DNA of 64,000 bases from IMG/VR virus record IMGVR_UViG_3300025073_000397; one strand, written 5' to 3'. The DNA is from a virus. Shown here in pieces: positions 39,279 to 62,729 of this stretch. Position 1 is the first letter of the stretch, and every line of letters begins with the position of its first letter. Made by a program: the position numbers and the translations under genes. The notes under the pieces were generated by a model that was given only the letters and a program-made list of their open reading frames with translations, had not been told where the DNA came from and did no database searches.

Positions 39279-39531
39279 GAAAATTCTGCGGTAGGGGTGT
39301 GCTTCCACCTACCTTTTCTTGCTGGGGATGCTCCACAGACCCCTGGAATCCTTGGCCAAAGTCTTTGCCTTACAGGCATTGAATAGCACAGCCTGTGTGG
39401 ATTTGTCATTGGGGTACCCGACCATAGCGCACAGGGACACTATCATTCTCCCGGAGATGCATTTGTGGTGGGTGACAATCCGATGAACAAGTTCTGTGGG
39501 TGTCTTGGTAGTCATGCCTGATCTCCTAAGT

Positions 39532-40453: not shown

Positions 40454-40491
40454 CTCTTCATCCTTTCCCGGATATCACCGGGGGTTGTTAC

Positions 40492-40526
40492 ACTAGGTAC
40501 TACCCGGATCTTTGAAAGTCTAACAC
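40492..40526 (-). promoter_or_regulatory. promoter motif instance C
   Basis: TACTACCC at 40498-40505, a 14-nt spacer, then CTAACA at 40520-40525. A CCCGG-ATATCA-CCGGG hairpin (40467-40482) lies between the motif and the start codon. Confidence 0.6.
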
Positions 40527-40559
40527 ACAAAGGTGAACGAATTGTCTTGAAGTTGGGGT

Positions 40560-41519
40560 TCATCGCGTTGCCTTCTTCGGTTGGGAGCGGGATTTGACTT
40601 GCCACACGAAGCCGAGTGCGTCTAGTTGGGAGACCATTTCAGGAATGATACGTAAGGCACCCTTGGAGGTTTTTTTGGCTGTACGGATGCAATTGACACG
40701 AACCCCCAATTTGTATCCGTCACTAGATGTATAAGAACGCCTGATCAGGCAATCGCCAAAGGCGTCTTTGTAGGCTGTAAGATGTTCCATAAAGGGTTGG
40801 AACCACTTTCCTTTGGTGGTGGCATCCCACACGAATCCAAGGGCTTCTAGTTGAGAAACCATCTCAGAAGTAATACGCAGGCCATTGCCCCTCTTCCTAC
40901 CATTTCGTATATCATTCACCCAGCGTCCCAGGGGGGTATCCATCCGGGCAAATGTGTAAGAAAGGCACTCGACAATCCCCATGCTCCCTTTTGTACACTT
41001 CCAGATGTTCTAAACATTCAGGGAACCACACTTTGTAACCCACAAACCAGACGAACCCGATAGCATCAAGTTGCTCAACCATCGCAGCGGAAACCTTTTT
41101 GCCTCCAACTCCATTTCGCCCTAGACGGACATAGTTCAGTTGCTTTCCGAGTTTGTACCCATCCCTACAGGTGTACGAGCGGGAAACCAAACAATCCCCA
41201 TACTCCCCCTGTATTCCCGCATATGGTCCAAAAATTCGGGGAACCACTTTCGGTAGCCTACTTCCCAGACAAAGCCCAACGTGTCAAGTTTAGAAATCAT
41301 CCAAGGCGTGATATGGAGACTCTTGAACTCTTTATGATTCTGCCGAATGTTATGCACCTGACCACCGAGTTTGTAGCCGTCTGGGCAGGCATACGACAGG
41401 GGCACTAACCCAGACCCATACTTCTCTTTGTACGTCGTCAGTCGCTCAACGAACTCGTCAAACCAGTGAACATCTGGGTCAGTAATGCCAAGGAAGACAG
41501 CATACTCGTGGAGATTCAT
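40560..41519 (-). pseudogene. HA-domain repeat gene (~5 units) disrupted by two homopolymer-associated frameshifts
   Basis: Track ORFs 41136..41657, 40912..41247 and 40560..40982 together tile one HA-repeat reading frame. It starts MNLHEYAV... at 41519, paralogous to the 608-aa gene start MNLYEYAV.... The frame switches occur at a G5 run (minus-strand cagggggag, ~41200) and a C6 run (tacccccctgg, ~40935). Confidence 0.5.
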
Positions 41520-45339: not shown

Positions 45340-45355
45340 GCTAACTCCTTTCAAC

Positions 45356-45390
45356 ACTTGGTACTACCCACCCAACACAAACCCTAACAA
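45356..45390 (-). promoter_or_regulatory. promoter motif instance D, upstream of helicase + HA-repeat operon
   Basis: TACTACCC at 45362-45369, a 14-nt spacer, then CTAACA at 45384-45389. Confidence 0.6.
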
Positions 45391-45415
45391 GTTTTCTGCA
45401 TCCCCCACGAAAAAA

Positions 45416-46964: not shown

Positions 46965-49205
46965 TTAGCCATTCCACCGCTTGTCCTGTTTCTCAAACTC
47001 CGCTTCAAAATCAAAAGGTGGCAGACCCAACTCCTTGCGAAGTCGCTGCAGTCCTCGTCTTGACAGGGCTACTCCAATGGATAGACCCATCCCATGCCAA
47101 GGGTTCTTCATGTGGTCAGCGGGGTCTAATCTATCAAGGATATCGTTACCAGAGTAAGGTGACTGTGGGTAGTAGTGCTGCAGTTGCCACGGGAGATCCT
47201 TGATGTCCATCCCCAAAAGGAAAGCGATAGCAGATGGGTCTTTGGGATGGAAACTTGCATAGTAGACCACAGGGCCACCCGTAAGGGGACAAATGTAGTG
47301 CCCGTTCTTGTTGTTGCCATTGAGCATAAAGTTGGGGAAATCCCAGTACTTTGGACCGTAGGCAGGGGATCGGGACAATGCCCAATGTCCCAGATTGTAC
47401 GTCTTGCCAGGTTTGTTTATGTCGTAGAACGAATCTTCATAGTCATCGTCATCTTTGCCATACCGCTTCCCGCATTCTATCATGTGGGCACAATGATGAC
47501 ACTCCAGGTTGGACACTTTGGGTTCTCCACAAACAGCACACCGATTTAGCATCTTTGGGGACGGGTCGTTGGCTAACATCTGGATCAGGCGATCCTTCTG
47601 CTCCTGTACTCTATCGTAGTACCATCCACTCGTAGGGTGGAAAAACTTATGGCTTCCCATGATCTCAGGAGCCGTTCGGTCGAATTCAGCATCGGCTAAC
47701 TTCTGGACGATATCACAGAAGTTCTTGCGTGCCACGAATACTCGGTCAGCCTCAATCTTTCCCTTAACCCCGAAATCTAGGGGATTCAGGGTCAACAGGG
47801 GATGACCCCCAACATTACGTTCTGTGACTCTAGCATTTACAGCCAAGTCAGCTAATGCCACATCAACAGGAGTATCCAGTTTAGGTAGGGCTGCCTTATG
47901 AGGCCACGCATCTACTTCTGCGGCAATCTCTGTTGCCTGTTCAGGAGTGAGTCCGCTGGGCAACAAGGATAGCAATTCTGGGGTACCTACAAGGTTCAGG
48001 ACGGAATCCGGTACCTGTAGGCCGTATCGCCCTATCATCCACTGATTGTGACCTACGGGGGTTGACCGCCACTGATCCCTAAGTGCATCCGTCTTGATGG
48101 ATTCCTTCGTATGCGGGGCCACGTCAAGTGGCTTGTACTGACCAGCAACCACAAGGGCATGGTTCTTGTCGATCAGCGCATCGGGCACCCTGAGCATCTC
48201 CACCGTGTAGGAGGTTTCCAGAAGGGGCGTAGCCTGAGCCTTGAAAAACTGCTCCTCAATCAGGTCAAACAGGAGGGATGCCCAGATCACTGTCTCTGGG
48301 AACAACTTGGAGAAGTCCTCGATAGGAACCGCTTGGGTATCATAGGGCACAAGCCCGTGCCGTGCTTTGGCAAAGGCTTCTCTCCGTACCGGGTCAATAG
48401 CCACATCCAGCAGTTCGTATGGGAAATGAGAATTCATGACCCTCTTATAGAAGTTCCTCTCGGGCCTACGACGCTTCTTCTCCTGTCCGGGGTAGTCGTT
48501 CTTCGGTTTGTCCGTGAGGACCGTCAACTGCTGGCCATTGCTGATGGCGACACAGAAGAAAGAGTGTATGGCTTCAGGTGCCCGAATGAGACAGATGGAT
48601 ATCCCCGGGAGTTTCTGCTGCTGCATGGCTCTCAATAGAGATGGCATGTTCCAGAATTCAAAGACCTTCCGGTTATAGAATGCCTTGGCACCTCTGGGTT
48701 CACCCCACAGGAATTGGTGCCTTTCCAGCGTCTTTAGCGCCTGAAGGGCATCTCTCCTGAGGAACGCCATCTCACCGGGTTTGGTCAGCCATGCTTCCAC
48801 GTCTTCCCGATCCAGGCTGTAGACGGAAACGGCTTCCCGTACACGCTGGATGAACTCTTTTACTACGTCATGGACTTCCGACCACTTCAAGAAAGCATAG
48901 AGAGCCTTGTAGCGGTCCATACGCTCTTGCCGTTCGGGTGAGAGTCCGGCAATCAACTCCAAGCCAGAGAAACGCTCTGACTCTAAGAAGATCTCCGTGA
49001 GTGCGTTGAGCAACATAAATGTGGTAACACCAGTGGGGTCCAAATCCCGCGACTCATTGAGTTCGTCTGTCATGGACTGTGTGTCCCAAGAGTACCAGTC
49101 GGGATTTTCTATATCGTTGGCTCGGATGGCGACCTTTGCCCATAGGAGCAGCCCTTCGTTGACTACTTCGTTGATGTTCATAGCAGAATGCACCTCACCT
49201 TCCAC
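46965..49205 (-). CDS. large hypothetical protein with Cys/His cluster
   Basis: 746 aa with CAVCGEPKVSNLECHHCAHMIEC. Promoter motif F lies immediately upstream. Confidence 0.6.
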   Translation of the reverse strand: MEGEVHSAMNINEVVNEGLLLWAKVAIRANDIENPDWYSWDTQSMTDELNESRDLDPTGVTTFMLLNALTEIFLESERFSGLELIAGLSPERQERMDRYKALYAFLKWSEVHDVVKEFIQRVREAVSVYSLDREDVEAWLTKPGEMAFLRRDALQALKTLERHQFLWGEPRGAKAFYNRKVFEFWNMPSLLRAMQQQKLPGISICLIRAPEAIHSFFCVAISNGQQLTVLTDKPKNDYPGQEKKRRRPERNFYKRVMNSHFPYELLDVAIDPVRREAFAKARHGLVPYDTQAVPIEDFSKLFPETVIWASLLFDLIEEQFFKAQATPLLETSYTVEMLRVPDALIDKNHALVVAGQYKPLDVAPHTKESIKTDALRDQWRSTPVGHNQWMIGRYGLQVPDSVLNLVGTPELLSLLPSGLTPEQATEIAAEVDAWPHKAALPKLDTPVDVALADLAVNARVTERNVGGHPLLTLNPLDFGVKGKIEADRVFVARKNFCDIVQKLADAEFDRTAPEIMGSHKFFHPTSGWYYDRVQEQKDRLIQMLANDPSPKMLNRCAVCGEPKVSNLECHHCAHMIECGKRYGKDDDDYEDSFYDINKPGKTYNLGHWALSRSPAYGPKYWDFPNFMLNGNNKNGHYICPLTGGPVVYYASFHPKDPSAIAFLLGMDIKDLPWQLQHYYPQSPYSGNDILDRLDPADHMKNPWHGMGLSIGVALSRRGLQRLRKELGLPPFDFEAEFEKQDKRWNG

Positions 49206-49240
49206 ACCCTGTACTACTCTGCCGTGCTACTTCCTAACAG
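49206..49240 (-). promoter_or_regulatory. promoter motif instance F (variant)
   Basis: TACTACTC at 49212-49219, a 14-nt spacer, then CTAACA at 49234-49239. Confidence 0.5.
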
Positions 49241-49928
49241 GTTTAGCGGGTTTTCCCGGGAAAGGCAACACATTGGCGGAATCATCTGAAAGATATGAGG
49301 ACGGGTCCAGCGATGTAACCCCTTTTGTGACCTGGCTGTCATCCACGGTCCCATGGGTGACCCGCACATTGGTGACTGGAGCGACTTTCCAGTCTTTATT
49401 GCGCCCATAGCACTCCAACATGTAGTTAAGTGCGGCTACGATTTCATCTGGCTTTTTGGTGTAACGGGAACAAGCACGGACCAACTCTTTGGTGGACAAG
49501 TCCTCTATGCAAATCTGAATGACCGTATCCTTTCCCAGACGACTGCTAGCAAACTTCTCTGCTACTGTTCGGAGTAGCGCATCTAAGGCATCATCCGAGA
49601 TACCACGGTAATCAAAATCAAAGCGTTTGACGGGCTCAGCATGACGGAGTAGGAATGTGGCGATATCCTGCATACTCTTTCCTTTCCGCCACATATCCCT
49701 GACGATAGGATAGTCGTCATCTGATTTTATTTTGGTATGGAGGCTCTCCAGAACGGAATGCAGGTCTAGGGATTTGGCTGTGCAGAGTTGGTCTAGCATA
49801 TCCAAGAGATCGCCATAAAACCTGCACCACCCGAAGTAATCCTGATTCAACCTCACCATGCAGACGACAGCAATGACTCCTACCCCTATCAAAACACCCG
49901 CAACAATTTCCAACCATGGGGACGGCAT
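49227..49928 (-). CDS. membrane-anchored hypothetical protein
   Basis: 233 aa with an N-terminal TM helix WLEIVAGVLIGVGVIAVVCMV. Confidence 0.5.
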   Translation of the reverse strand: MPSPWLEIVAGVLIGVGVIAVVCMVRLNQDYFGWCRFYGDLLDMLDQLCTAKSLDLHSVLESLHTKIKSDDDYPIVRDMWRKGKSMQDIATFLLRHAEPVKRFDFDYRGISDDALDALLRTVAEKFASSRLGKDTVIQICIEDLSTKELVRACSRYTKKPDEIVAALNYMLECYGRNKDWKVAPVTNVRVTHGTVDDSQVTKGVTSLDPSSYLSDDSANVLPFPGKPAKPVRK

Positions 49929-49932
49929 CTAT

Positions 49933-50364
49933 TCACACCTTCCGATTAGCCCGTCTTAAAGCGGCTTCCTTTCTCTTGACCTTCTTCAAGGCAAGTGCCT
50001 TGGCTTTGGTTTCCTCCGCTTCCCGCCTCTTACGACCTGCTTCTTGCAGAGCGGCTGCAAAAGTCGAGAGCTGAGATGGAATGGCTTTCTTCTGCTTTTT
50101 GGTGATAGCTCTGATCAATGACTCGTGTATCCAGGTCCGGGTGCCCCACTCATCCACGGTGACTTCCACATACCTACCAGCAGGTTTTTCACGTTTGGAG
50201 AGTTTGAAATCCCGCCGCATATGGGCAGCCCTTTCTTCAGTCAATATTTGCGTCTTAGGCTCTCCAGATGGTATCCTACATGTCTTCCACCGTCCCTGTA
50301 CCAATGCCTTGACCATGACCCAATTGATAGGTTCTTTGGGTGGAACTTTGATTAGCCTGCGCAT
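49933..50364 (-). CDS. basic hypothetical protein
   Basis: 143 aa with a Lys/Arg-rich C-terminus. Confidence 0.45.
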   Translation of the reverse strand: MRRLIKVPPKEPINWVMVKALVQGRWKTCRIPSGEPKTQILTEERAAHMRRDFKLSKREKPAGRYVEVTVDEWGTRTWIHESLIRAITKKQKKAIPSQLSTFAAALQEAGRKRREAEETKAKALALKKVKRKEAALRRANRKV

Positions 50365-50582
50365 TCAGAAATCCTCCTCCCGATCACCCGTATCACTGTA
50401 CCATTAGAGTGAACGAACAGCCGCCTCTCCCGTACCTCACTGGTATCTTCTGAACAGGTGTAGACGCAATTATCCAACAATCCCTGAACCACGTCTCCCT
50501 TTTGGATTGCCTGTACTTCTTTCCATGTGCCGTCAGCCATCATTACCTTGTGATTCCCGGTCATTGCCACAGGTACTTTCAT
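50352..50582 (-). CDS. small hypothetical protein (doubtful)
   Basis: 76-aa ORF that overlaps both neighbours. Confidence 0.25.
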   Translation of the reverse strand: MKVPVAMTGNHKVMMADGTWKEVQAIQKGDVVQGLLDNCVYTCSEDTSEVRERRLFVHSNGTVIRVIGRRISECAG

Positions 50583-52842
50583 ACAATCCCCCCATCAGTT
50601 TCGGATTACGATTGCCATGTAGGATCCTTCTGTCCAGAAGGTCATTGGTTTTCTGGAACAGCAATTGTGCTATCTTTGCGAGATCATCTGAATAGACGGA
50701 ATCCTCAAACAGATCCTGAACGTATTCCGTCCCTTCCCCCAAACCCACACCCACTGTATATACCCCGATCGCCCGAGCAATACGTACTTGTCTATTGATT
50801 ACGGGGACATGCTTTGAATCGGGTTTGCCGTCTGTCACCACATAGAGTAGCTTGTGTTTCTCCGGCCGTCTACTCAACTCATTCAAGGCCATCTGGATAC
50901 CATCTGCCATGGGTGTAGTGCCAACCGCCTTTGTGTTGACAAATCGCCAACGTATTGATTGAAAGGGTTCGTCCCATGTCTTGAAGATGTCATAATGTAC
51001 TGACCCAGACCGATGGCACCCTGATGGGTCAGCACCCATTAGGACGTCTGGGGGTACTCGCTTTTCCCCGTTTCGAAACCCAATACAAAGGGTTGCGCAC
51101 CCCACAGCGTCAAAGGGCTCTATGATCGTAGTCATCGCTTGTGCGGCGAACTCCTGTTTAGACAAGACCATTGGGGCTTCCGTCTTCTTCCTCTGTCTGC
51201 TCTTCTTGCTATCTGTAATCAACTTTTTGGCTGTAGCAACTAACCCACAGGCTTCCTTCATCGAACTGGATTCATCTAGAACAACCGCGATAGCCCCACT
51301 GGTATCCACCCTTTCAGAGGCTACACAGTATGCCCGGTCTGGCACCACCCCACCCCTCAGGCAAATAGCCGATTCTACCAGCATTCTCTCTGAGAGCATT
51401 CGGCCATGCCGGACTCCATGTGCGACCGATGTCAACTCCAATGCTTTGAACCGATTGCGAAAACGTGCACGCAAATAAGAAGCAGGCACTTGAACCATCT
51501 CCATCAACTCGGACGCCCTTTGATTGTCGTGCCCCTTACCAAATGTGGATGGTTCAACCAGAGCCATTGTGTCGAAGGTAGTCGTAAGGGGGCAATAAGG
51601 TGCTTCAGTCTTGTCGGCGGGCACCTTCTCCATGGGACAATTGGTATTGAGATCCTTAATTGCCCCATTGAATGCCCCTTCTGAGTTCAAGGTCTCCACA
51701 CCATTTGACATCCCGACAAGAACGCCTTTAGCCCAATCTCCGTCTGGGAGGGGGGTCTCGGGGATCCCCAAGTGGGTTTCATCATTGACTTCACTTCTCT
51801 CCTCTTGGATATCAACCTGTGTCTGCCACCCACACACCGTACAAGTGATAATCCCGATCTGTGAGAATTGCGGAGCTGATCGTAGGCGCAATTTATCCTG
51901 GGACGCCCCACAAGCGGGACAGGTGGAGACACTAGTGGGCTGGCTGGTCTTGTCCTCAAGCCCCCCCATATTCTCCAACATACTGATCAGATCCATGGCT
52001 ATACGAATGCACCCCAAGTCATCATCGGCACTCAGGGAAATGGCTTCTTCTAAAAGGGGGAGGATTGCCCCTGACTCCACCATCTCTACAGTAGTGGGGC
52101 TCCAGTCTTTATACCGTCCCAAAGTGAGACGTTGAAGCTCCGATTGGTACCCTAACCCCAAGTCCCTGAATGCCCGTACCAGGATGGTCGCATCAGATGG
52201 GGGCTTCTTGTTCGACAATGCTTCTCGATGGAGAATGAAGTCCTGAAGGTCAACCATCTTGGGGTATGTACCCGGGAACGCCTTGACTCCTAGTCGTTCA
52301 ATCCGAATGTCCTCGATGTCATTCGAGATATCCAATAGAACTGTGGCATACTTGGACCAATCCTTGACCTTGGCCCAACGTGGCAATACGAGGTTGGCCA
52401 CCTCTTCAGTTGTCAGAGGCCGTTGGCACGAGTAGAGACTATGCCAACTCTCATGGTATGCACCACCTACCAGTGCCATTGCCATTTTATGGGGTAGATC
52501 ATTGGGTGTCTCTGCTATCTGAATGTGGGGCCACAGCACTGTCTCTGTATTAGCCTTGGAAACCCATTCTCGCACATGATGGGGGGTCGGCATAGTGCCA
52601 GGATTGGCCTCAGCCCAAGAACATGCTTCTGCCAACATGAGTCGAAATGTCCACCGACCAATATTCTTGAACTCTGTGCCACAAGAGATGATGGGGATAC
52701 TGTTGGCCCCTAAGATACCTATCACAGATGCTTGGTGCGTCTCTCGGTATCTGCTACCCGGAAGAACAGGCATGGTTACTACGGTGGGGACCAACTTACT
52801 GGCATCTATTGACTCCATAGCCATTCCGATGTGCCTGCTCAT
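50533..52842 (-). CDS. vWA-domain protein (CobT-like) with central Zn-ribbon
   Basis: The C-terminal vWA MIDAS motif is AIAVVLDESSSM, with GTTPMADGIQMA and LLYVVTDGKPD. The track start at 52860 is TTG and lies inside promoter motif E, so ATG 52842 (MSRHIGMAMESID) was preferred. Confidence 0.7.
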   Translation of the reverse strand: MSRHIGMAMESIDASKLVPTVVTMPVLPGSRYRETHQASVIGILGANSIPIISCGTEFKNIGRWTFRLMLAEACSWAEANPGTMPTPHHVREWVSKANTETVLWPHIQIAETPNDLPHKMAMALVGGAYHESWHSLYSCQRPLTTEEVANLVLPRWAKVKDWSKYATVLLDISNDIEDIRIERLGVKAFPGTYPKMVDLQDFILHREALSNKKPPSDATILVRAFRDLGLGYQSELQRLTLGRYKDWSPTTVEMVESGAILPLLEEAISLSADDDLGCIRIAMDLISMLENMGGLEDKTSQPTSVSTCPACGASQDKLRLRSAPQFSQIGIITCTVCGWQTQVDIQEERSEVNDETHLGIPETPLPDGDWAKGVLVGMSNGVETLNSEGAFNGAIKDLNTNCPMEKVPADKTEAPYCPLTTTFDTMALVEPSTFGKGHDNQRASELMEMVQVPASYLRARFRNRFKALELTSVAHGVRHGRMLSERMLVESAICLRGGVVPDRAYCVASERVDTSGAIAVVLDESSSMKEACGLVATAKKLITDSKKSRQRKKTEAPMVLSKQEFAAQAMTTIIEPFDAVGCATLCIGFRNGEKRVPPDVLMGADPSGCHRSGSVHYDIFKTWDEPFQSIRWRFVNTKAVGTTPMADGIQMALNELSRRPEKHKLLYVVTDGKPDSKHVPVINRQVRIARAIGVYTVGVGLGEGTEYVQDLFEDSVYSDDLAKIAQLLFQKTNDLLDRRILHGNRNPKLMGGLYESTCGNDRESQGNDG

Positions 52843-52858
52843 GCACCACCCCCCCTGC

Positions 52859-52893
52859 AACTCATACTACCCGCCTGATTCCACTTCTAACAG
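52859..52893 (-). promoter_or_regulatory. promoter motif instance E
   Basis: TACTACCC at 52865-52872, a 14-nt spacer, then CTAACA at 52887-52892. Confidence 0.6.
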
Positions 52894-52901
52894 AAAAAAA
52901 T

Positions 52902-52936
52902 TGGTTAGGAAGTCTGCAAGTTGGGTAGTATGAGGT
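52902..52936 (+). promoter_or_regulatory. promoter motif instance E-prime, divergent from E
   Basis: TGGTTAG at 52902-52908, a 14-nt spacer, then GGGTAGTA at 52923-52930. The AAA+ gene starts 26 nt downstream of this site. Confidence 0.6.
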
Positions 52937-52961
52937 AAGAACGCTCTCCAAGGAGGTACGA

Positions 52962-54122
52962 GTGGGAGCCCAGGCAAAATGCGAAATTTGTGACTTTCAG
53001 AGCCACTACCTAGCAGAACACCTTAAACAGGTACACGCACTCTCAGTGGAAGACTACCTGACAAGGTACCCGGATAGTGGGGTGGTTTCAGATACCCTGA
53101 TGACTGAGTGGGAGTCCCAAGGCCAATTCCGGCGAGAACCCCCACCAATGCCCGAGGCATTGAGACTCGTCTTCGCTGGAGCATCTTTCCCAGTCAATGT
53201 AGACGTCCCCGAAGATGCTTGTTTACCTCTTCCGGATTACTACATGATCCCCACAGATGACGCTCTGGGGAGAGATGTGCATCATGCAGCGGTCGCCTTA
53301 GCTAACCATCGGTCTATGTACATTTGGGGTATGCCAGGATCGGGAAAGGATGCTTTTTTCCATGCATGGTCGGCCCTTACTCGCAGTCCTGCAAAACCTT
53401 TCCCAATCCAACCTGGATTGGATATCCAGAGCTGGTTCTATTCCAGGACGTTCTCAGCAACTAGCACAATGTGGGAGGAGGGGGAACTCCTAACAGCACT
53501 AAGAGATGGCTATAAGTCCCCCATCTCTGGACGAGTGATCCCCTACCTGATTCTTCTTTCGGATATGGATCGGGCAGATCCCCGGAGTCAGACGGAGGCA
53601 CTCCGGCTCATCATGGACTCAATATCCGGGCGAATAAAAGGACCCCGTGGGGAAACGTATAAGGTGCTTCCTGGCACTCGAATTGTCGCTACAGGGAATA
53701 CATCTGGATCGGGAGATCCTCGTGGCAGGATGATTTCCGCCAACTCCATTGATGCGGCAATGTTCGATAGGTTCGAACGGAAGTTTGAATTCCACTGGAT
53801 GGGTTGGAAGGACGAAGAAAAGATTGCCATCCAGAAATTCCCATTCCTGGCTGAACAGTATCCTGACTGTTTCAGGGAAGTGGGTGCATCAACTACTGCG
53901 CTCCGAGAAGCAATCAAGCTGAATACTCTATACGGAGAATTCTCCCATCGAGCCGTGTGTGCCTGGCTAGGACATGCACAGGACTTACTCCTATCAGGAG
54001 AACCCAAAAAGAATCTGTTGATCAAAGCAGCTAAAGCTTTTCTGGATGGGTTACCGGATGAAGCATCCAAGTTGACTGCTCAACGTCTCATTGACCCATC
54101 TCTCTCAGGGGGTGCCATATGA
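52962..54122 (+). CDS. AAA+ ATPase (MoxR/CobS-like)
   Basis: 386 aa. The P-loop YIWGMPGSGKD is a variant; the Walker B region is YLILLSDMDRADP; the sensor is VATGNTSGSGDPRGRM. Confidence 0.65.
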   Translation: MGAQAKCEICDFQSHYLAEHLKQVHALSVEDYLTRYPDSGVVSDTLMTEWESQGQFRREPPPMPEALRLVFAGASFPVNVDVPEDACLPLPDYYMIPTDDALGRDVHHAAVALANHRSMYIWGMPGSGKDAFFHAWSALTRSPAKPFPIQPGLDIQSWFYSRTFSATSTMWEEGELLTALRDGYKSPISGRVIPYLILLSDMDRADPRSQTEALRLIMDSISGRIKGPRGETYKVLPGTRIVATGNTSGSGDPRGRMISANSIDAAMFDRFERKFEFHWMGWKDEEKIAIQKFPFLAEQYPDCFREVGASTTALREAIKLNTLYGEFSHRAVCAWLGHAQDLLLSGEPKKNLLIKAAKAFLDGLPDEASKLTAQRLIDPSLSGGAI

Positions 54123-54943
54123 CCAAACCTTCTGCCAAGGATTTCCGGGAACCCCTCCTGCTAACTCTGGGGGAGATGTCCAACTGGACATCAGATGTCC
54201 CGGTCCACCATGAATCCGTCACTCCCCCGATCCTGACCAAAATGGGGATTGACGGTGTCGATCAATACGGACGACAAGATGCATCAGGTAAACCCTGGAT
54301 CGTGCTATGGATCAGTTGGGCTTTCCGCGCCCTGAAGGATTCTGGGGAAGCAATACAAATCGGTAGAGGGCAGTGGGGGCTGACTTCCGTGGGAGTCAAT
54401 GCTGCTATGGGCCTTGCCCGAAGCAAGGGGCAATTTGTACCGGACGCTGTCATCATCTCGCCTGTAGCACCCAAAGATATGTTCACCACTCTGATCAAAC
54501 CAGAGTACCACCCTGACCCCTACATAAGACAAGTAGCATTGAATCAGACACGATGTGTGGGACACTGGTCGGACAGGTCCTCCGTATGTGGGAAGTGTCG
54601 TTTAGAGGCGGACTGCAAACAAGTTATGTTCGCCAAGCTGACAGAGCTTGCCAAATGTTTGGATGCTGGTACGACCTTGCCCCCACAGGAGACTGATAAG
54701 AATCCATCCCCACTGAACCCGGCCCTGTCCTTCACCCATCAGGGACGCTGGACTCTAGTAACGTTCGCGGACGGGTCCACCAAGGTCTGTAAGGGGAAGG
54801 ACATGCTGAGGATTCCTATCACGGTCGAGTCTAAATGTGAGCACTGCAATCAAATCATCCCAATTGGGAGTAATGGCTACTGGACACCTCGTGCCGGAGT
54901 GTTCCACGAGGACTGCATCTGGGAGAGAGCAACACATGCATAG
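54119..54943 (+). CDS. Cys-rich hypothetical protein
   Basis: 274 aa with an ATGA overlap against the AAA+ gene. Confidence 0.5.
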   Translation: MTKPSAKDFREPLLLTLGEMSNWTSDVPVHHESVTPPILTKMGIDGVDQYGRQDASGKPWIVLWISWAFRALKDSGEAIQIGRGQWGLTSVGVNAAMGLARSKGQFVPDAVIISPVAPKDMFTTLIKPEYHPDPYIRQVALNQTRCVGHWSDRSSVCGKCRLEADCKQVMFAKLTELAKCLDAGTTLPPQETDKNPSPLNPALSFTHQGRWTLVTFADGSTKVCKGKDMLRIPITVESKCEHCNQIIPIGSNGYWTPRAGVFHEDCIWERATHA

Positions 54944-55202
54944 TGAAACGACACTTTCTTGTGACAAACGACAGTTGGTAGTTGTAAAGTGGGAAAGAGA
55001 CAACTCTTCCGGGCCGGTGGTGCAAATGACATTTGAGGTGCATTTCCCGTCTGGGGCATCTGTGTCTACTACACGAGTCCTCATCCCGCTTACTACTATT
55101 CAATTGGATACGGGGGAGGCCATAACCCCCACGAAGGATGAAAGAGATATGGCTATTGACGAAGCAATTTCACGACTCGATAGAGACGACGCCTGGGAAT
55201 GA
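54936..55202 (+). CDS. small hypothetical protein
   Basis: 88 aa from MHSETTL. It overlaps the upstream stop by 8 nt and the downstream start by ATGA. Confidence 0.3.
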   Translation: MHSETTLSCDKRQLVVVKWERDNSSGPVVQMTFEVHFPSGASVSTTRVLIPLTTIQLDTGEAITPTKDERDMAIDEAISRLDRDDAWE

Positions 55203-55762
55203 CAGATGGGGGCAAAGTAACCATGTCAACACCAATCATCATCGTAGATGTAGAGGCAGATGGGCCCTGCCCCGGATTGTATTCCATGGTATGTTTTGGG
55301 GCCGTGAAGGTGGATACTAGAGCTATCATGCCAGGGGAAACCCCGGAGACGTTCTATGGCCGAACTTCCCCTATTTCAAATGAGTGGGTGCCAGAAGCTC
55401 TGGCCGTCTCGGGATTCGCCAGAGAACAACATCTTGCTCTTCCAGACCCCATCTTTACGATGGGTGTCTTTGACAACTGGCTCAAGATGGTGTGTGGAGA
55501 CTCCAAACCCATCTTCGCCAGCGACAACAATGGGTTTGACTGGCAATTCATCAACTACTACTTCCATCGTTTCTTAGGGCGTAATCCCTTTGGGTTCTCC
55601 AGCATGAATCTCAATAGTCTCTATAAGGGAGTGCACAAGTCGCTCCATGCCAATTGGAAGCGAGAGATGAAAGGTCTCACCGTGAAGCATGACCACAATC
55701 CAGTACACGATGCCCACCGAATGGCTCAGGCTTTGATACAGATGGGGATCAAGGGGGTCTGA
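55199..55762 (+). CDS. DEDDh 3'-5' exonuclease (DnaQ/RNase T-like)
   Basis: Exo I is IIVDVEADG; Exo II is DNNGFDWQFIN; Exo III is HNPVHDAHRMAQ. The start may instead be the internal ATG at 55223. Confidence 0.7.
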   Translation: MTDGGKVTMSTPIIIVDVEADGPCPGLYSMVCFGAVKVDTRAIMPGETPETFYGRTSPISNEWVPEALAVSGFAREQHLALPDPIFTMGVFDNWLKMVCGDSKPIFASDNNGFDWQFINYYFHRFLGRNPFGFSSMNLNSLYKGVHKSLHANWKREMKGLTVKHDHNPVHDAHRMAQALIQMGIKGV

Positions 55763-55764
55763 CC

Positions 55765-56394
55765 ATGCCGTCTAACAAGATTCGCACCATCCGAGTCAAC
55801 GACTGCATTGCCTGGATGAAGATTCTCCATGATGGGCAACTTCGTAAGATGTCCAACACTCCTTACTATATCCACCCCTTGGGGGTACTGGAACTCATGG
55901 AGGAAAGTCCCTTCTTCTTCACGGATAGCGACAAGTGTGCCGCCTTGCTGCACGATGTCAAAGAAGATAGTCCGGGCTTCTCTTGGCCTGAATTGGTTCG
56001 CAGGTATGGGAGAAACGTTGCAGGAGCGGTGGCACTACTCTCCAAGTCCAAGTTGGGGGAAACGGATCCCGATGTCTACTTCACCATGCTCTCCCTAGCA
56101 CACCCACGGGTGATAGCGATCAAGCTGATGGATCGGATCCAGAATACCAGTGACTTCAACATAGCCAATGATCCTGATTGGTTGGAAAAATATGCTGCTG
56201 AAACAGTGGAACTCGTGTGCCCTCTGATCCAAGTCATGGTGTCTAGGGGAAAGTCAGTAGCGGGCGGATTCTATGAGTTGGGTGTCTGGATTGAGGAATT
56301 GATCCAGAGCAACATCCAGGGCATGCGAACTCGTGCCCTAGAGCTCAGACTGGCAGAGTGCAGAGCCGAATGCAAAACCGAGCCTGGAGTGTGA
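55765..56394 (+). CDS. RelA/SpoT-type HD-domain hydrolase (small alarmone hydrolase-like)
   Basis: 209 aa. YYIHPLGVLELM...AALLHDVKED...RVIAIKLMDRIQN is collinear with the SpoT HD hydrolase motifs (HPL.VA, AALLHDvvEDT, RVilIKLADRlHN). Confidence 0.75.
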   Translation: MPSNKIRTIRVNDCIAWMKILHDGQLRKMSNTPYYIHPLGVLELMEESPFFFTDSDKCAALLHDVKEDSPGFSWPELVRRYGRNVAGAVALLSKSKLGETDPDVYFTMLSLAHPRVIAIKLMDRIQNTSDFNIANDPDWLEKYAAETVELVCPLIQVMVSRGKSVAGGFYELGVWIEELIQSNIQGMRTRALELRLAECRAECKTEPGV

Positions 56395-56565
56395 CGTGTC
56401 AACTTTTACTCTAGTTTTATACCGCTGGAGGGCTCAAAAATAGAACACAACGGGATCACGTACAAAGTCACAACTGACCCGACGTTCAGTTTGAATGCGA
56501 ATATCGTTTCTGTGGATGCGTGCTCTCTCGAATGGATAGAGTAAAGAGAAACCAGGAGGTGTCAC

Positions 56566-56904
56566 ATGGGCACGAATTGGATTCCGTTTTTCTTTGACAG
56601 CAATCGGGCTTTCGGTGAGGTTCCCGATTTGACTGCCTGGGAGAAGCTCAAGGCTAGAGCCAAGAAAGGGTACGACTATGACTTCAAACACATCCTCATG
56701 GACGCCTGGAAATGCCCGGATGATAGCTATACCCATCCGAGTGATTGTGTTCGGGGTCGCCCGACACGCCCCCCGATGCCCAACTTCGGTTGGAGATCCG
56801 AACATATCGGTGGGGTACCCACCTTGGCGGTCTGGGCTAAAGAGAATGGGATGTACGACCAGATGTTTCCGGCTGACGAGTTTTCACAGGAAGGTGGCAA
56901 ATGA
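56566..56904 (+). CDS. hypothetical protein
   Basis: 112 aa with SD AGGAGGT 6 nt upstream. Confidence 0.45.
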   Translation: MGTNWIPFFFDSNRAFGEVPDLTAWEKLKARAKKGYDYDFKHILMDAWKCPDDSYTHPSDCVRGRPTRPPMPNFGWRSEHIGGVPTLAVWAKENGMYDQMFPADEFSQEGGK

Positions 56905-57254
56905 CCCCCAATGGAATGAGTAAGGCTCAACAGGAATTTGTAGCTGCCCAGGCACGGAAATTACTGATCAGGTGGTGCCAGCTGGCTATCTCCGATGAGT
57001 GGTATGCTGGGGATGATGACTCAGTACGTCGCACCCCGGGGCTAGCCATAGTTTCGTCATGGTCCCCGAACGTTGATGCGATGTCCGGGCTGATCACAAA
57101 GTCAGAACTTGAGCGGCTTAATGAGAACCCCTATCTGGCTTATGCCATCTCTAAAGGCTGGGTATCTTTGGTGGGGAAGTTAGATGGGAATTGCTTCACA
57201 GTCAAAGTCCTTGCTGCCGGGTACTCATCAGCAGCCAGGGCACTCAGGAAGTAA
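56901..57254 (+). CDS. hypothetical protein
   Basis: 117 aa with an ATGA overlap. Confidence 0.45.
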   Translation: MTPNGMSKAQQEFVAAQARKLLIRWCQLAISDEWYAGDDDSVRRTPGLAIVSSWSPNVDAMSGLITKSELERLNENPYLAYAISKGWVSLVGKLDGNCFTVKVLAAGYSSAARALRK

Positions 57255-57531: not shown

Positions 57532-59448
57532 ATGAGACTGGGAAAACAAGTCCCTTTCGATACTTCCAGCATAGCAAAACTACGTCAAGACTTCCTTCTC
57601 CTCATGAAGCAGGTCCACAAACCTACCGACTATGATGAGGCTGCCCACCTACAGAAAGCCTTCACCACCTGGAGACTGCACTTCGAGGGAATCGTTCTCA
57701 GGATCACTAAGCTGCTAGAACAATCCCTATGGAAAGCCTGGAAAGATGGACCCAAAAAGCGGGATATTGAAACCCTCACGAAGATGATCAACGGAGACAC
57801 TTGGGGCCTAGTCACACTGGACTTTCCGCTACGTCATCCCGATGCATACTGGAACAAGGAACTGTGCTTCAAAGACTTCATCAGGAAGCTACCAGCTTGG
57901 GAGTCTAGACTTCGTAGGGATAGCCGCCCTGCTTGGAAAGTCCTCAAAGATTTCATTTTCTGGTACCAGAAACTGGAGGAGACCGACGAGCCAGTTCGCC
58001 TGAACTTTCCTGATTCCTACACTGATAGCATAGAGGGGTTCAGCATCACCTTCAAGGCTATCAACGAACGAGACAAGAAGGAACTAAACAGTTTCCAGGT
58101 TGGACTCAGACGATACAAGCAGAGAGCCACCCAAATACTACCATGGTTGCTCCGCTACAAACTACCCATCATTCTAGAGGGGTTCAATGAAGGTGGACTA
58201 GACTTTGGTGGGCGATATGAGCGAGATCATGTTCTCATCAATACGATCCAGAATTCCGATCCGGACAAAGTAGCTTACACCTTGGCTCATGAGATGGGGC
58301 ACCATCTATGGAGAACTGGGCTGGACAGTAAGGCACATACGTACTGGAGAGACGCCATACTGGGAGATTCGGGGCCAGTAGACTTGAGCCGTCTCTTCAG
58401 AGGGATGAAGGATGGTGACACCGTTGCAGACTATATCCTTCGTCTGGACAAGCATTTGGACCCCTTGTGGTATCTCCAACTAATGGGGCTCATGTACAGT
58501 AGCCAATGGCATCAATGGGTAGAGGACCATGGTAAGGTAGATGTCAAGACGATGCTAGACTCCGGCACAGATGAAATTCACGTCCCCAAGCACCCTATTT
58601 CGGCCTATGCCGGGAAGAACCCGGAGGAAGCCTTTTGCGATGCCCTTGGACAGCTAGTAGGATACGGGCCCAGAACAGTACCGGAAATGGCACGAGAATG
58701 GTTGAAAGTGGTCGTGCCATCAATTCGAGTTGCGTCCCTACAGGAGAAACCCATGAGAACCTTGACAGCAGCACACAAAGCCTTGTTCGGTGGGGAGGTT
58801 GACCGACAGTTCGTCGCCATGGTGGTGGGTGATCCGGAGCTCTACAGAGCTACCCGAGACGTGGTCATAAAAGCGGCTGCTTGGGATAACCTACCAAAGG
58901 GGTGGACACAAGAGTCAGTAGAGAAGTTCTGGGATTCTCTGACCGGGGATGCAAAGCATAAGGTCACTAAGTGCATGAAGGAAATGGAAGGCAAAATCGA
59001 CAACACGGGCGCTTTTTGCGGGTCATTGGCCGACAAAATTGAGGGGTCTACTGATTGGCGGAAAAAGAGTAAGAAAGCAGGCCAAATGGATTGGAAAACC
59101 CAAGATGGAGCAATGGATAAGATCAAGGGTGAGGCTATGCGGGTGCTCATCCGCAACGGTGCAAAGACAATTCGCACGGGAATGAATAGCATCGGCTTTG
59201 CTCTAGATGGTGTTAGCTATAGCGTTATCTTCAATTGGCGGGGAGATAAGTTGCAGGGACAGGTACTTCGCTATGATCGGGCTGGCGGGGTCGCCATGAC
59301 CTCCGAAAGTGTCTTTGACTATGTAGACCCGCAACATGCAGTACATACCATTCTCCACGCCAAAGGCTGGAGAGGTCAGGCTGTTATGCCTATGAAACGC
59401 ATGGCTTCCTTATCAGCAGATGACTACAAGACTGAGTTGGGGATCTGA
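57532..59448 (+). CDS. large protein with zincin-like HExxH motif (putative metallopeptidase)
   Basis: 638 aa with AYTLAHEMGHHLW. Confidence 0.55.
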   Translation: MRLGKQVPFDTSSIAKLRQDFLLLMKQVHKPTDYDEAAHLQKAFTTWRLHFEGIVLRITKLLEQSLWKAWKDGPKKRDIETLTKMINGDTWGLVTLDFPLRHPDAYWNKELCFKDFIRKLPAWESRLRRDSRPAWKVLKDFIFWYQKLEETDEPVRLNFPDSYTDSIEGFSITFKAINERDKKELNSFQVGLRRYKQRATQILPWLLRYKLPIILEGFNEGGLDFGGRYERDHVLINTIQNSDPDKVAYTLAHEMGHHLWRTGLDSKAHTYWRDAILGDSGPVDLSRLFRGMKDGDTVADYILRLDKHLDPLWYLQLMGLMYSSQWHQWVEDHGKVDVKTMLDSGTDEIHVPKHPISAYAGKNPEEAFCDALGQLVGYGPRTVPEMAREWLKVVVPSIRVASLQEKPMRTLTAAHKALFGGEVDRQFVAMVVGDPELYRATRDVVIKAAAWDNLPKGWTQESVEKFWDSLTGDAKHKVTKCMKEMEGKIDNTGAFCGSLADKIEGSTDWRKKSKKAGQMDWKTQDGAMDKIKGEAMRVLIRNGAKTIRTGMNSIGFALDGVSYSVIFNWRGDKLQGQVLRYDRAGGVAMTSESVFDYVDPQHAVHTILHAKGWRGQAVMPMKRMASLSADDYKTELGI

Positions 59449-59519: not shown

Positions 59520-59831
59520 ATGGACCTATTGGGACTCAGGGAGTACTTGGACCGACAGAAGGCATGGTCTGAACCAACCTTTGGTACGGGACTCCGCACA
59601 GGTGGCCTTACAAAGCACATAGAGAAGGAACTAGCGGAGATCCGTAAGGCACCTACCGATGTATTGGAATGGATCGATGTGATAATCCTCGCTCTGGACG
59701 GTGCATGGCGTTGCTCTGCCTCCACACAGGATGTGGTTGATGCCCTAGCTAAGAAGCAGGATGTGAACCTTGCCCGCAAATGGCCTCCACCTGGACCGGA
59801 GGATGTACCCAATGAACACATTCGCACTTAA
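59520..59831 (+). CDS. MazG-like nucleotide pyrophosphohydrolase (small all-alpha NTP-PPase)
   Basis: 103 aa. KHIEKELAEIRKA...VLEWIDVIILALDGAWR...NLARKW matches the EExxE...ElaDv pattern of phage MazG-like proteins. Confidence 0.55.
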   Translation: MDLLGLREYLDRQKAWSEPTFGTGLRTGGLTKHIEKELAEIRKAPTDVLEWIDVIILALDGAWRCSASTQDVVDALAKKQDVNLARKWPPPGPEDVPNEHIRT

Positions 59832-59910: not shown

Positions 59911-60954
59911 ATGAGATGTAATTTCGTGTTGATGCTGTGTTGTATGGTTGGGTTCGGATCAATGGGGTGCATGGGACCTGCTAGAGTGGAACCTATTCAA
60001 GAGATTGGACCCAATGAGACCGCCTTCCTGATCCCCATGGAGGGGGCCAGTAAGGACGGTCAAGCAAAGTTTATGAGCGAAGAGTTCCTTCAGGCCAATA
60101 AGGTCGCTGGTAAACGAGTGATCCTTCCTGTACGGGAGCGGAGCACAGGTCGCATGTGGTGGGATTACGAGTATATCCCCACGGTCAAGGTCATTACAGT
60201 TGATCGGACTCCTATAACCAGGGAATGGACTGGAGACGCCAAAACAGGAACAGGAACCAAAAATGAAGGAATCGCCGTGGAATCCAAAGAGTCCATAGGA
60301 TTCACCTGCGGAGTGACGATCACAGCTGCCATCACAGAAGACGACGCCGCTGCCTACCTGTACTGGTATTCAACCAAGCCCCTAGCAGAGGTAATCGACC
60401 AGAACGTGCGGGGTTACATCCAGAGTTATCTGGCCAATGAATTCGGAAACAAAACATTGGATCAATGCCGTACTGACAAGACTGCAGTGATGAGTGCCTT
60501 GGCCGAGAAAACCAAGGAAGAGTTCAAAAAGCGGGGCGTCACCATCCTCAATGTTGGTGGGTCTGAAGGATTGACATACGAGAGTAAGGACGTTCAAGTG
60601 TCCATTGACTCTGCCTACTCGGCAAGTCGAAAATTGGAGCAGGCACGAGTAGATGCAGACAAGGCCAAGACTGAGGCTGAGGGGCGTGCTAATGCTGCTA
60701 TTGAGACAGCTCGTGGCAACGCTGAGAGTGCTGTCAAGTGGGCTGAGGGTCAGGCTAAAGCCCGACTGGTTGTAGCTGAAGCGGAAAAGAAAGCCAATGA
60801 GATGTTGAACGCATCCATCACCCCCAACATTCTGATGTGGCGGGGTATCGATAAGTGGGTTGGGGCGGTCCCCACAACACTCATGTACGGGGGTGGTGCG
60901 GATATGCCCGCCATTCCCGTTCTAGACGTTTCAGCCAAAGTACCCAATCTGTAG
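59911..60954 (+). CDS. SPFH/band-7 (stomatin/HflK-like) lipoprotein
   Basis: 347 aa. The lipobox is MLCCMVGFGSMGC. The C-terminal Ala/Glu coiled-coil KAKTEAEGRANAAIETARGNAESAVKWAEGQAKARLVVAEAEKKA is typical of SPFH proteins. Confidence 0.5.
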   Translation: MRCNFVLMLCCMVGFGSMGCMGPARVEPIQEIGPNETAFLIPMEGASKDGQAKFMSEEFLQANKVAGKRVILPVRERSTGRMWWDYEYIPTVKVITVDRTPITREWTGDAKTGTGTKNEGIAVESKESIGFTCGVTITAAITEDDAAAYLYWYSTKPLAEVIDQNVRGYIQSYLANEFGNKTLDQCRTDKTAVMSALAEKTKEEFKKRGVTILNVGGSEGLTYESKDVQVSIDSAYSASRKLEQARVDADKAKTEAEGRANAAIETARGNAESAVKWAEGQAKARLVVAEAEKKANEMLNASITPNILMWRGIDKWVGAVPTTLMYGGGADMPAIPVLDVSAKVPNL

Positions 60955-62483: not shown

Positions 62484-62695
62484 CAGAACGCATTCTCCAC
62501 GAGTTTAAAGCCGGATATATACGAGACGGGGTAATCCTTGGTAACCCAACCGGAACCTGTGAGAAGTGCAGCAGAGTGGATGTTCCCGTCATTTGCATCG
62601 ACCCGGCTGAGATGGAATATGGCTACTACTGGTGGTGCCAGAATTGTCTCAATGAAATGTTCGGCATCCTGTTAGACAAACCCAAACCAGAGTAG
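62480..62695 (+). CDS. small Zn-binding hypothetical protein
   Basis: 71 aa with an ATGA overlap. Confidence 0.4.
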   Translation: MTERILHEFKAGYIRDGVILGNPTGTCEKCSRVDVPVICIDPAEMEYGYYWWCQNCLNEMFGILLDKPKPE

Positions 62696-62729
62696 TATGG
62701 TTTGGTGGCAACTGGAGGTTTCGAACCAC

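Follow-up and report, generated by a model that had tools for sequence, protein, structure and literature searches.

A putative MoxR-class chaperone trio with an exchanged Walker pair shares a gene string with a Cap18-type exonuclease in a large uncultivated phage

Organization of the locus

We have analyzed a locus in the virus record IMGVR_UViG_3300025073_000397 of IMG/VR, which encodes a CobT-like protein containing a domain of the von Willebrand factor A type (vWA) and, in opposite orientation, a CobS-like ATPase of the AAA+ family that is followed by a DEDDh exonuclease (Exo) and a protein with a RelA/SpoT-type HD domain. The locus extends over positions 50,533-56,394 of a stretch of 64,000 nucleotides, hereafter termed the window, which belongs to the large genome of an uncultivated phage. 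In an earlier note on this DNA, the vWA/AAA+ pair, the nuclease and the HD protein were proposed to form a single module for host takeover or anti-defence. All open reading frames (ORFs) named there, both promoter copies and the quoted motifs are found where that note had placed them, with GMPGSGKD comprising residues 123-130 of the AAA+ protein and HPL, LLHDVKED and KLMDRIQN residues 37-39, 61-68 and 120-127 of the HD protein. The Pfam matches of the individual ORFs are weak yet consistent (Table 1).

The genes from the AAA+ ATPase to the HD protein show the tight packing of an operon, as had been claimed, although the claim overlooked two intervening ORFs, o274 and the 88-residue o88. The junctions AAA+/o274, o274/o88 and o88/exo overlap by 4, 8 and 4 nucleotides and exo and HD are separated by 2 nucleotides. 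A gap of 171 nucleotides follows the HD gene, in which no unusual structure was detected (z=0.23), and the string of plus-strand genes runs on beyond it. Because the junctions are tight and no other plus-strand promoter copy is found between 52939 and 62663, co-transcription from the AAA+ gene onward appears plausible. A DNA search of GenBank phages with positions 50000-57000 gave no match, and scans of the whole window for tRNAs and Rfam families returned nothing.

The back-to-back copies of a conserved promoter, from which the earlier note had the pair transcribed divergently, are real. The motif, GTTAG-N14-(G/A)GGTAGTA(T/C), occurs in nine copies in the window with identical spacing. A weight matrix derived from these nine sites assigns them 31-46 bits, with a single extra site at 4021-3978(-) scoring 18.8 bits, and shuffled sequence reaches at most 15.2 bits; since the matrix was built on the same sites that it scores, the evidence lies in the gap between the scores and not in the scores themselves. 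The sites are located at 4021-3978(-), 33047-33090(-), 33370-33413(-), 39241-39284(-), 40489-40532(-), 45353-45396(-), 49203-49246(-), 52856-52939 (both strands) and 62663-62706(+). Copies of the motif, to which (A/C)AGTGT is often appended, are found ahead of many non-structural genes and do not fit the consensus of a sigma-70 scan; the window encodes a sigma-like protein at positions 18751-20139. A generic sigma-70 promoter scan, which gave 3 matches compared to 7.3 in shuffled sequences, was discarded in favour of the phage-specific motif. The GC skew changes sign at about 52000-54000 and its cumulative minimum is located at about 52-54 kb, coinciding exactly with the reversal of gene orientation between the divergent promoters. 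The change of sign could reflect either transcription strand bias or a replication origin or terminus.

Table 1. Features of the locus and of the downstream gene string, with positions in the window.
Feature	Position	Strand	Remarks
CobT-like vWA protein	50533..52842	-	769 residues from ATG 52842; Pfam VWA 2.5e-5
Promoter motif copy	52864..52891	-	GTTAG-N14-GGGTAGTAT; drives the vWA gene; weight-matrix score 42.1 bits
Promoter motif copy	52904..52931	+	head of the plus-strand gene string; weight-matrix score 40.1 bits
CobS-like MoxR-class AAA+ ATPase	52962..54122	+	GTG start, ribosome-binding site AAGGAGG; AAA_5 2.2e-4
o274, Mrr_N winged-helix/Cys4 protein	54119..54943	+	third conserved gene of the module
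o88, small ORF of 88 residues	54936..55202	+	overlaps both neighbours
Cap18-family DEDDh Exo	55199..55762	+	RNase_T 3.7e-5; PDB 7T2S 2.9e-28
Small alarmone hydrolase, single-domain RelA/SpoT-type HD	55765..56394	+	209 residues; HD_4 5.6e-7
dATP/dGTP pyrophosphohydrolase (MazG-like)	59520..59831	+	PF04447 1.2e-22; same promoter-less gene string
SPFH/Band-7 protein	59911-60954	+	signal-peptide-like N-terminus; same promoter-less gene string

Exchange of conserved residues in the ATP binding site of the AAA+ protein

The assignment of the pair to the CobS/CobT-like class holds well for the AAA+ protein, whose family profile matches CobS in the PDB (9ujv, 4.6e-8) and PHROG 249 (4.4e-16); the matches of the vWA protein to the vWA parts of CobT and NorD are weak. 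An AlphaFold model of the ATPase (predicted local distance difference test score, pLDDT, of 88.6) finds its best counterparts in a Foldseek search in NorQ (4e-13) and CbbQ, with AAA modules of dynein and Rea1 also among the matches. The N-terminus carries a C2H2 zinc finger of the Ros/MucR type formed by C7, C10, H20 and H25 (profile against Ros, 0.023). The relatives found in GenBank phages are just CobS genes of cyanophages and pelagiphages, with 23-28% identity.

The P-loop of the protein, GMPGSGKD, had attracted attention for an Asp in place of Thr or Ser. GKD is kept without exception by the close homologues (120/120), all of which combine the Asp at position 130 with Ser or Thr at position 200 and Asp at position 201. 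In the protein of the window, the respective regions read GMPGSGK-D130 in Walker A and LILL-S200-D201-M-D203 in Walker B, the latter coinciding with a strand at residues 196-200 of the model. To place these residues in the context of the wider family, we used an exhaustive HMMER search, which yielded 336 representative clusters at E <= 1e-3, of which 121 were aligned. Each of the 66 representatives with Asp130 in Walker A contains Ser/Thr-Asp at positions 200-201 of Walker B (66/66), whereas position 200 is occupied by Asp, Glu or Asn, in most cases within an Asp-Glu pair, in all representatives with Ser or Thr at position 130 (52/52). Seven sequences of the latter group show Asp-Asp in Walker B and thus appear to be intermediates. 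The register of the alignment is unambiguous because sequences such as LLDEFDRAD line up with LLSDMDRAD of the window. An early reading of Walker B as D-[F/M]-D, which would have implied the loss of the catalytic Glu and a dead ATPase, was overturned by the wider alignment, in which [S/T]200-D201 falls on the canonical D-E.

Since D130 covaries with Ser/Thr200 and since Asp-Asp intermediates exist, the alignment is best described by an exchange of places between the Mg-binding Ser/Thr of Walker A and the Asp of Walker B, with the catalytic Glu replaced by Asp, in a perfect covariation that leads from GK[ST]+DE to GKD+[ST]D. The two exchanged residues are directly hydrogen-bonded and strictly conserved partners in 3136 catalytic sites of P-loop NTPases (PMC9599734). 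Sensor 1 (N246), the arginine finger (R270) and sensor 2 (R330) are all retained. The altered site would thus probably constitute a ligand swap in a live, compensated and catalytic ATP binding site and not its decay. In a literature search, we have found no paper on a GKD Walker A motif.

The vWA protein, its conserved partner o274 and the pair in related loci

The vWA ORF was called as 50533..52860(-), with a TTG start at 52860. The true start is likely the ATG at 52842, which is preceded by GGGGGGTGG and which we prefer because the position of the -10 element puts the TTG at or before the predicted start of the transcript. The protein comprises, in this order, an N-terminal HExxH metallopeptidase-like domain, a zinc ribbon (CPxCG...CTxCG), an acidic low-complexity linker that is short here but long in its relatives, and a vWA domain at the C-terminus. 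Invariant in the family alignment are residues of the GGxxHExxH motif (G126, G127, H130, E131 and H134) together with the downstream Glu E182, the zinc ribbon and a complete adhesion site of the metal ion-dependent type (MIDAS) consisting of D523xS525xS527, T643 and D671. In searches of the PDB, the profile of the family matches a NorD-type vWA domain (9qh6_G, 9.6e-5) and CobT (9uka_G, 1.7e-3), both weakly and in the vWA part alone, and no sequence match to CobT_N was obtained, a region in which an M48C-like element has been described (preprint 10.64898/2026.07.21.739949). Single-sequence searches of the PDB with the vWA protein, the AAA+ protein and o274 gave nothing significant.

The product of o274, which had previously gone unnoticed, is a conserved partner with a winged helix of the Mrr_N type at residues ~1-110, followed by a cluster of four cysteines (C146-x10-C157-x2-C160-x5-C166) and a C-terminal C240xxC...H263xxC266 motif. 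The cysteines are invariant in the family alignment, and Pfam Mrr_N matches 7 of 14 members, with a best value of 2e-7. The spacing of the cysteine cluster presumably resembles that of iron-sulfur cluster loops in DNA enzymes. An AlphaFold model, underlain by three matches from a word-indexed homologue search, has a pLDDT of 58.7 and is confident for residues 1-110 alone. Homologues of the adjacent o88 are found in nine related loci, where they are encoded on the opposite strand, past the vWA gene; the hidden Markov model of this family matches the ORF of the window at 1.3e-18.

A profile search of IMG/VR with the AAA+ family identified 23 related loci, whose contigs measure 28-619 kb. Each of them (23/23) has the vWA gene beside the AAA+ gene, with a divergent arrangement in 17, a co-oriented arrangement with the vWA gene upstream in 5 and the vWA gene downstream in 1, and the next gene after the AAA+ gene is o274 in about 16. 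In 13 related loci (L011-L032, at ~11000-11700 in most), o274 is succeeded by a protein of about 170 residues ending in TPRVxFK, and a gene resembling M23 peptidases is often found further downstream. Homologues of these two genes, and of another conserved gene, were not found in the 64-kb window. The description of CobS/CobT-like pairs as recurrent phage genes of unexplained function requires qualification since the class is not wholly uncharacterised, as pairs of MoxR ATPases and vWA proteins with metallopeptidase domains were described in jumbo phages (PMC7824862).

In light of these features, we have considered whether the pair could constitute a true cobaltochelatase motor (CobST), which would hijack CobN of the host to supply more cobalamin to a B12-dependent class II ribonucleotide reductase (RNR) of the phage. 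CobS is the closest solved relative of the AAA+ protein, such a role has been proposed for viral cobST genes (PMC8651126), and a class II RNR is encoded in the window at 8180-11578 (PF21995, PF17975). Conversely, the N-domain of CobS is replaced by a zinc finger, the Walker pair is swapped and a winged-helix/Cys4 partner is unknown in chelatases. Moreover, the similarity to CobT amounts to a weak vWA match on par with that to NorD, the invariant HExxH motif suggests peptidase chemistry, and no CobN was found among the large ORFs of the window that were scanned with Pfam or PHROGs. We thus regard a function in cobalt chelation as very unlikely.

Somewhat less remote, if still rather unlikely in our judgment, is a chaperone and protease acting in virion assembly, as proposed for jumbo phages of group 2.2 and shown in Acidianus two-tailed virus for its tail. 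The same architecture and a corresponding proposal for its role were reported (PMC7824862), and the window encodes a GroEL-like chaperonin. The pair is embedded, though, among genes of replication and early type and shares its promoter motif with a helicase and other non-structural genes. In addition, the Ros/MucR zinc finger and the Mrr_N winged helix are both typical nucleic-acid-binding modules, and structural genes were not seen in the related loci examined.

A phage-encoded exonuclease of the Cap18 family

The exonuclease had been described as DnaQ-like. While the residues that define DEDDh enzymes are indeed present, the protein is probably not DnaQ-like. It is related specifically to Cap18, a 3'-5' exonuclease associated with cyclic oligonucleotide-based antiphage signalling systems (CBASS). 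In a comparison with all PDB sequences, a single DEDDh enzyme was retrieved, which is Cap18 of E. coli upec-117 (7T2S), and no structure of DnaQ, RNase T, Orn, TREX or Rv2179c was found at E<1. The catalytic residues D17, E19, D109, H166 and D171 align with D12, E14, D104, H160 and D165 of Cap18, and a conserved NPFG motif is located at residues 129-132. By offset mapping, the counterparts of P15 and V55 of VcExo and of the Phe in NPFG appear to be conserved as well. The PADLOC model for the CBASS 'Effector: Exonuclease' (PDLC00753) detects the protein at 9.4e-36 and 121 bits, compared to 25 bits for Pfam RNase_T; the same model assigns 286 bits to a CBASS-embedded protein of Klebsiella and 139 bits to a stand-alone planctomycete homologue.

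Biochemical properties of this group of enzymes have been described. CBASS exonucleases including Cap18 are reported to be devoid of detectable DNA or RNA exonuclease activity and to selectively cut 2'-5' bonds, as found in linear pppA[2'-5']pG from cGAS-like enzymes and in 2'-5' oligoadenylate, thereby cleaving the linear intermediate and not the cyclic product, an activity that sets the activation threshold of the CBASS system (preprint 10.1101/2025.03.04.641389). Phage homologues are not mentioned in that work. The earlier note had considered cyclic oligonucleotides as substrates.

The family comprises 5,538 proteins at E <= 1e-5. Homologues with 36-40% identity to the protein of the window are encoded on Klebsiella plasmids within a CBASS operon of type II and on a Bradyrhizobium plasmid within one of type III, the CBASS-embedded sequences used for comparison thus being drawn from plasmids. 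The alignment separates a CBASS-embedded subgroup with the signature GFNAxFDW (49-57% identity among its members) from a stand-alone/phage subgroup with the signature SDNNGFDW (48-85% identity within), with 33-41% identity between the two. The exonuclease of the window falls into the second subgroup, and its nearest relatives (55-60% identity) are chromosomal genes of Planctomycetes encoding proteins of ~172 residues without CBASS nearby, and genes on other phage contigs. The similarity to Planctomycetes may provide a hint at the host. At least 244 viral stretches of IMG/VR encode relatives, compared to almost none of the GenBank phages. No CD-NTase or effector was seen among the neighbours of the gene in the window, which is not part of a CBASS operon. 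On two Planctomycetes chromosomes (L003 5539-6519 and L004 5651-6519), an Imm8 gene of polymorphic-toxin immunity directly precedes the stand-alone exonuclease, with an overlap of 4 nucleotides in L004. In another phage (L007/L008 8001-10886), a 60%-identical exonuclease is found 1.5 kb upstream of a homologue of the anti-Pycsar protein Apyc1 (PF23023), beside a gene resembling nucleoside 2-deoxyribosyltransferases and among small early-type ORFs.

A more conventional function would be that of an ordinary 3'-5' exonuclease of nucleic acids, involved in proofreading by a polymerase or in the decay of RNA or nanoRNA, with the HD protein keeping (p)ppGpp low and the transcription and translation of the host thereby active during infection, as part of a metabolic takeover and not of anti-defence. 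Consistent with such a function, the protein matches PHROG 192, 'DNA polymerase exonuclease subunit' (8.5e-10), its homologues often match the Pfam family of Rv2179c-like 3'-5' exoribonucleases, its closest relatives are the stand-alone chromosomal genes mentioned above, and the window is a region of replication and nucleotide metabolism. In other phages, the exonuclease often has genes of nucleotide or RNA metabolism as neighbours (NUDIX, dUTPase, RNA ligase and Thg1), and these together with HNH are the commonest Pfam families near it. These similarities are outweighed by the much stronger match to Cap18 (2.9e-28) and the CBASS model and by the lack of DNA or RNA exonuclease activity in the characterised CBASS enzymes. 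We thus consider an ordinary exonuclease unlikely, if a serious contender.

A small alarmone hydrolase

The classification of the HD protein as RelA/SpoT-type is confirmed by a match to HD_4 of 29.9 bits (at a cutoff of 27.2) and by matches to the hydrolase domains of SpoT and Rel (3e-10) and to Mesh1 (2.6e-7) in the PDB. Its match to TIGR00691 spoT_relA (8e-13) covers positions 7-144 of 687 in the profile and is thus confined to the hydrolase part; synthetase, TGS or ACT domains are not found in the protein. All hydrolase motifs of RelA/SpoT homologues (RSH) are present, including R27-K28, H37-P38, H63-D64, E67-D68 and D123...N127. By family, the protein is thus a complete small alarmone hydrolase, with hydrolysis as the predicted activity. 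It is highly diverged from characterised enzymes, and its candidate substrates are (p)ppGpp, (p)ppApp and pyrophosphorylated tRNA. Among GenBank phages, 121 records contain genes of such hydrolases (29-35% identity), and a 75%-identical gene stands alone in another phage. Toxic alarmone synthetases are neutralised by one described representative, PaSpo, which is encoded by Salmonella phage SSU5 (PMC9712102), and HD-alarmone phosphodiesterases of jumbo phages were already proposed to counter nucleotide-based defence (PMC7824862).

Linkage between the ATPase pair and the two hydrolases

The earlier note had treated the ATPase/vWA pair, the nuclease and the HD protein as one functional unit. This linkage is not conserved, as homologues of the exonuclease or the HD protein are found within 9 kb of the pair in none of the 23 related loci (0/23). 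The arrangement of the window recurs in the near-identical contigs L005 and L006 and is thus specific to this lineage. The neighbourhoods of the exonuclease are themselves diverse, with 907 neighbouring proteins from 72 non-identical viral loci falling into 693 clusters. We consider it slightly better than an even bet that the region combines two separable gene sets, a chaperone trio and a cargo of signal hydrolases, that share one promoter-headed unit in this lineage. The notion of a single host-takeover or anti-defence module would thereby be dissolved, with the anti-defence part being kept for the exonuclease and the HD protein.

Several observations weigh against this assignment. In an unrelated low-GC phage contig (L113 3874-6685), a homologue of the exonuclease is flanked by the genes of a DUF2201 vWA/metallopeptidase and an AAA_5 protein, the stop and start codons of adjacent genes overlapping, and three further loci (L057, L148 and L043) carry MoxR/vWA-type genes of this sort 1.4-3.5 kb from the exonuclease, so that some functional tie between the exonuclease and MoxR-vWA pairs may exist. 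Co-expression is favoured by the close overlaps that run from the AAA+ gene to the HD gene. With its swapped Walker pair, the AAA+ protein could be a slow or a regulatory ATPase. Finally, the subgroup to which the exonuclease belongs, a sister of the CBASS-embedded one, also comprises thousands of chromosomal genes that stand alone with no CBASS nearby, as in Planctomycetes, and may have a housekeeping substrate.

Some of these observations would be accounted for by a single system, in which the AAA+/vWA machine would work together with the exonuclease and the HD protein, for example by recruiting or activating them on a host target. Besides the single promoter copy with the overlapping start and stop codons and the independent recurrence of a vWA/metallopeptidase, an exonuclease and an AAA_5 protein in L113, such a system would be in line with HD_4 genes next to the exonuclease in L047 and near it in L169. 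It is at odds with the absence of both hydrolases from the 23 loci of the same AAA+/vWA family and with the low frequency of MoxR/vWA genes near the exonuclease, found in ~4 of ~110 distinct loci, which does not clearly exceed the clustering of early and nucleotide-metabolism genes. Additionally, the pair in L113 does not detectably belong to the family of the pair in the window, as hhalign comparisons of the window vWA and AAA+ families with the L113 proteins were not significant; a search for relatives of the L113 AAA_5 gene returned the L113 locus alone. A single system thus strikes us as improbable, and we retain the division into two sets as our preferred interpretation.

Other genes of the window

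The window further encodes a class II RNR with an intein, helicases of the RecD2, SNF2 and DEAD types, RecA/UvsX, the GroEL-like chaperonin and the sigma-like protein. The gene string downstream of the HD protein contains, at 57532-59448(+), a protein of 638 residues with a HEMGH zinc-peptidase motif, whose sole family match is a faint one to the CBASS-associated regulator CapP (PADLOC, E 0.0017). It also contains the dATP/dGTP pyrophosphohydrolase listed in Table 1, for which the near-identical contig L005 shows the same gene order and which may be part of the nucleotide-hydrolase cargo. The class II (B12-dependent) RNR at 8180-11578(-) is split by an intein with an HNH endonuclease (RNR_Alpha, RNR-II_ins_dom, Intein_splicing, HNH_3). 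At 41516-43342(-), a protein of 608 residues is built from 'helicase-associated' HA domains (PF03457, E 1.7e-76), seven of them in tandem, and is encoded immediately downstream of the gene for a ResIII/DEAD helicase (43339-45357). Other genes encode a protein of 956 residues with a DUF2958 domain (28543-31413(-)) and the phage GroEL-like chaperonin (34314-35939(-); PHROG 5725, 2e-90).

Discussion

The identities of the protein families described in this study are well supported by comparison of their sequences. The mechanism that we infer, which concerns the substrates and the anti-defence role of the hydrolases, the activity of the ATPase and the co-transcription of the genes, would involve two sets of proteins. 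In the first set, consisting of the CobT-like vWA protein, the CobS-like AAA+ protein and o274, a hexameric AAA+ ring would drive the vWA adaptor, whose MIDAS would grip a client protein in analogy to CobST, NorQD and CbbQO as part of a MoxR-class chaperone module. Because it carries an HExxH metallopeptidase-like domain, the adaptor may cleave its client as well as remodel it. The second set, consisting of the exonuclease and the alarmone hydrolase and perhaps the downstream dATP/dGTP pyrophosphohydrolase, would constitute mobile accessory cargo directed against nucleotide signals of the host. In this set, the exonuclease would cleave 2'-5'-linked linear intermediates or oligonucleotides of cGAS/CD-NTase-type enzymes and in this way block CBASS-type signalling, whereas the alarmone hydrolase would remove (p)ppGpp or (p)ppApp, or the 3'-pyrophosphates added by toxic alarmone synthetases.

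A more specific proposal, which we put forward as tentative, is that the exonuclease is a phage-captured enzyme of the Cap18 type that has become a widespread and so far undescribed anti-CBASS weapon by cutting the diffusible 2'-5' linear intermediate, while the alarmone hydrolase would disarm immunity based on alarmones and toxic small alarmone synthetases (toxSAS). If true, immune evasion would in this case take place at the level of a reaction intermediate and not at that of the finished signal, which would be neither degraded nor sponged but never produced. The HD gene is a further member of already described phage hydrolases, and what is notable about the locus are the phage-borne exonuclease of the Cap18 type and the exchange of the Walker A and B residues. 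As its Walker A and B partners have swapped in perfect covariation and with visible intermediates, the AAA+ family offers a natural experiment on the chemistry of the P-loop. Cobalt chelation is made less likely, at least in this lineage of viral 'cobST', by the zinc finger of the ATPase and by its conserved winged-helix/Cys4 partner, a point that bears on how viromes are annotated, where such genes are listed as auxiliary metabolic genes. Should none of these proposals hold, the region would still be a well-resolved case of ordinary phage accessory cargo beside a chaperone operon.

Comparison with known systems

The ATPase pair can be related to several classes of AAA+ proteins with vWA adaptors. 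Like CobS-CobT and the cobS genes of cyanophages and pelagiphages with their 'peptidase' cobT, the window encodes an AAA+ protein beside a vWA/MIDAS protein with an acidic linker, in a gene pairing as found in cyanophage S-SSM7, and its ATPase shares the ATANTxGxGD and DRF regions with CobS. It differs in the ATP binding site, where CobS of Brucella contains a canonical Walker A (G71-S78) and Walker B (D141-E142) (preprint 10.64898/2026.07.21.739949) and CobS of S-SSM7 contains GKT and DE, as opposed to GKD and SD in the window. Further differences include the Ros/MucR zinc finger in place of the N-domain, the third partner o274, the lack of CobN among the large ORFs scanned and the low identity to phage CobS proteins (23-28%). 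NorQ-NorD and CbbQ-CbbO, whose ATPases are the best structural matches of the AAA+ model, follow the same logic of an ATPase ring with a MIDAS adaptor. Their sequence identity to the AAA+ protein is only 16-20%, their clients, nitric oxide reductase and Rubisco, are irrelevant to a phage, and the adaptors NorD and CbbO contain neither the metallopeptidase domain nor the zinc ribbon that are both found in the window. The MoxR-vWA pair of jumbo phages (Iyer et al. 2021, PMC7824862) exhibits the same two-gene architecture with an N-terminal HExxH domain and is likewise found in large phages. It belongs to a different sequence family, as the vWA protein of the window shows no match to Pfam DUF2201 and no significant hhalign similarity to L113, and its description does not include a swapped Walker pair, a zinc finger or a winged-helix partner.

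Among alarmone hydrolases, the single HD_4 domain with RSH motifs and without a synthetase is shared by Mesh1, PaSpo, the hydrolase domain of Rel/SpoT and the HD-alarmone phosphodiesterases of jumbo phages. The protein of the window is distinguished from known small alarmone hydrolases by an extra C-terminal stretch of about 50 residues.

The exonuclease has the DEDDh residues and the motifs GPxPGxYS, PxALxVxG, FDWxFxNxYF, NPFG and HxxxxD in common with Cap18 and other CBASS exonucleases (upec-117, 7T2S; Exo of S. marcescens and V. cholerae) and is of similar size, with about 170-190 residues. Whereas these proteins are part of a host CBASS operon, where they set the activation threshold for the host, the enzyme of the window is encoded by a phage, is 36-40% identical, carries SDNNGFDW instead of GFNAxFDW and would act against the host. 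In its proposed mode of action, it resembles Acb1 and Apyc1, which are also small phage hydrolases that remove an immune nucleotide signal. The folds of the two proteins, a 2H phosphodiesterase and a metallo-beta-lactamase, respectively, are unrelated to that of the exonuclease, and both destroy the finished cyclic signal, whereas an enzyme of the Cap18 type would destroy its linear intermediate.

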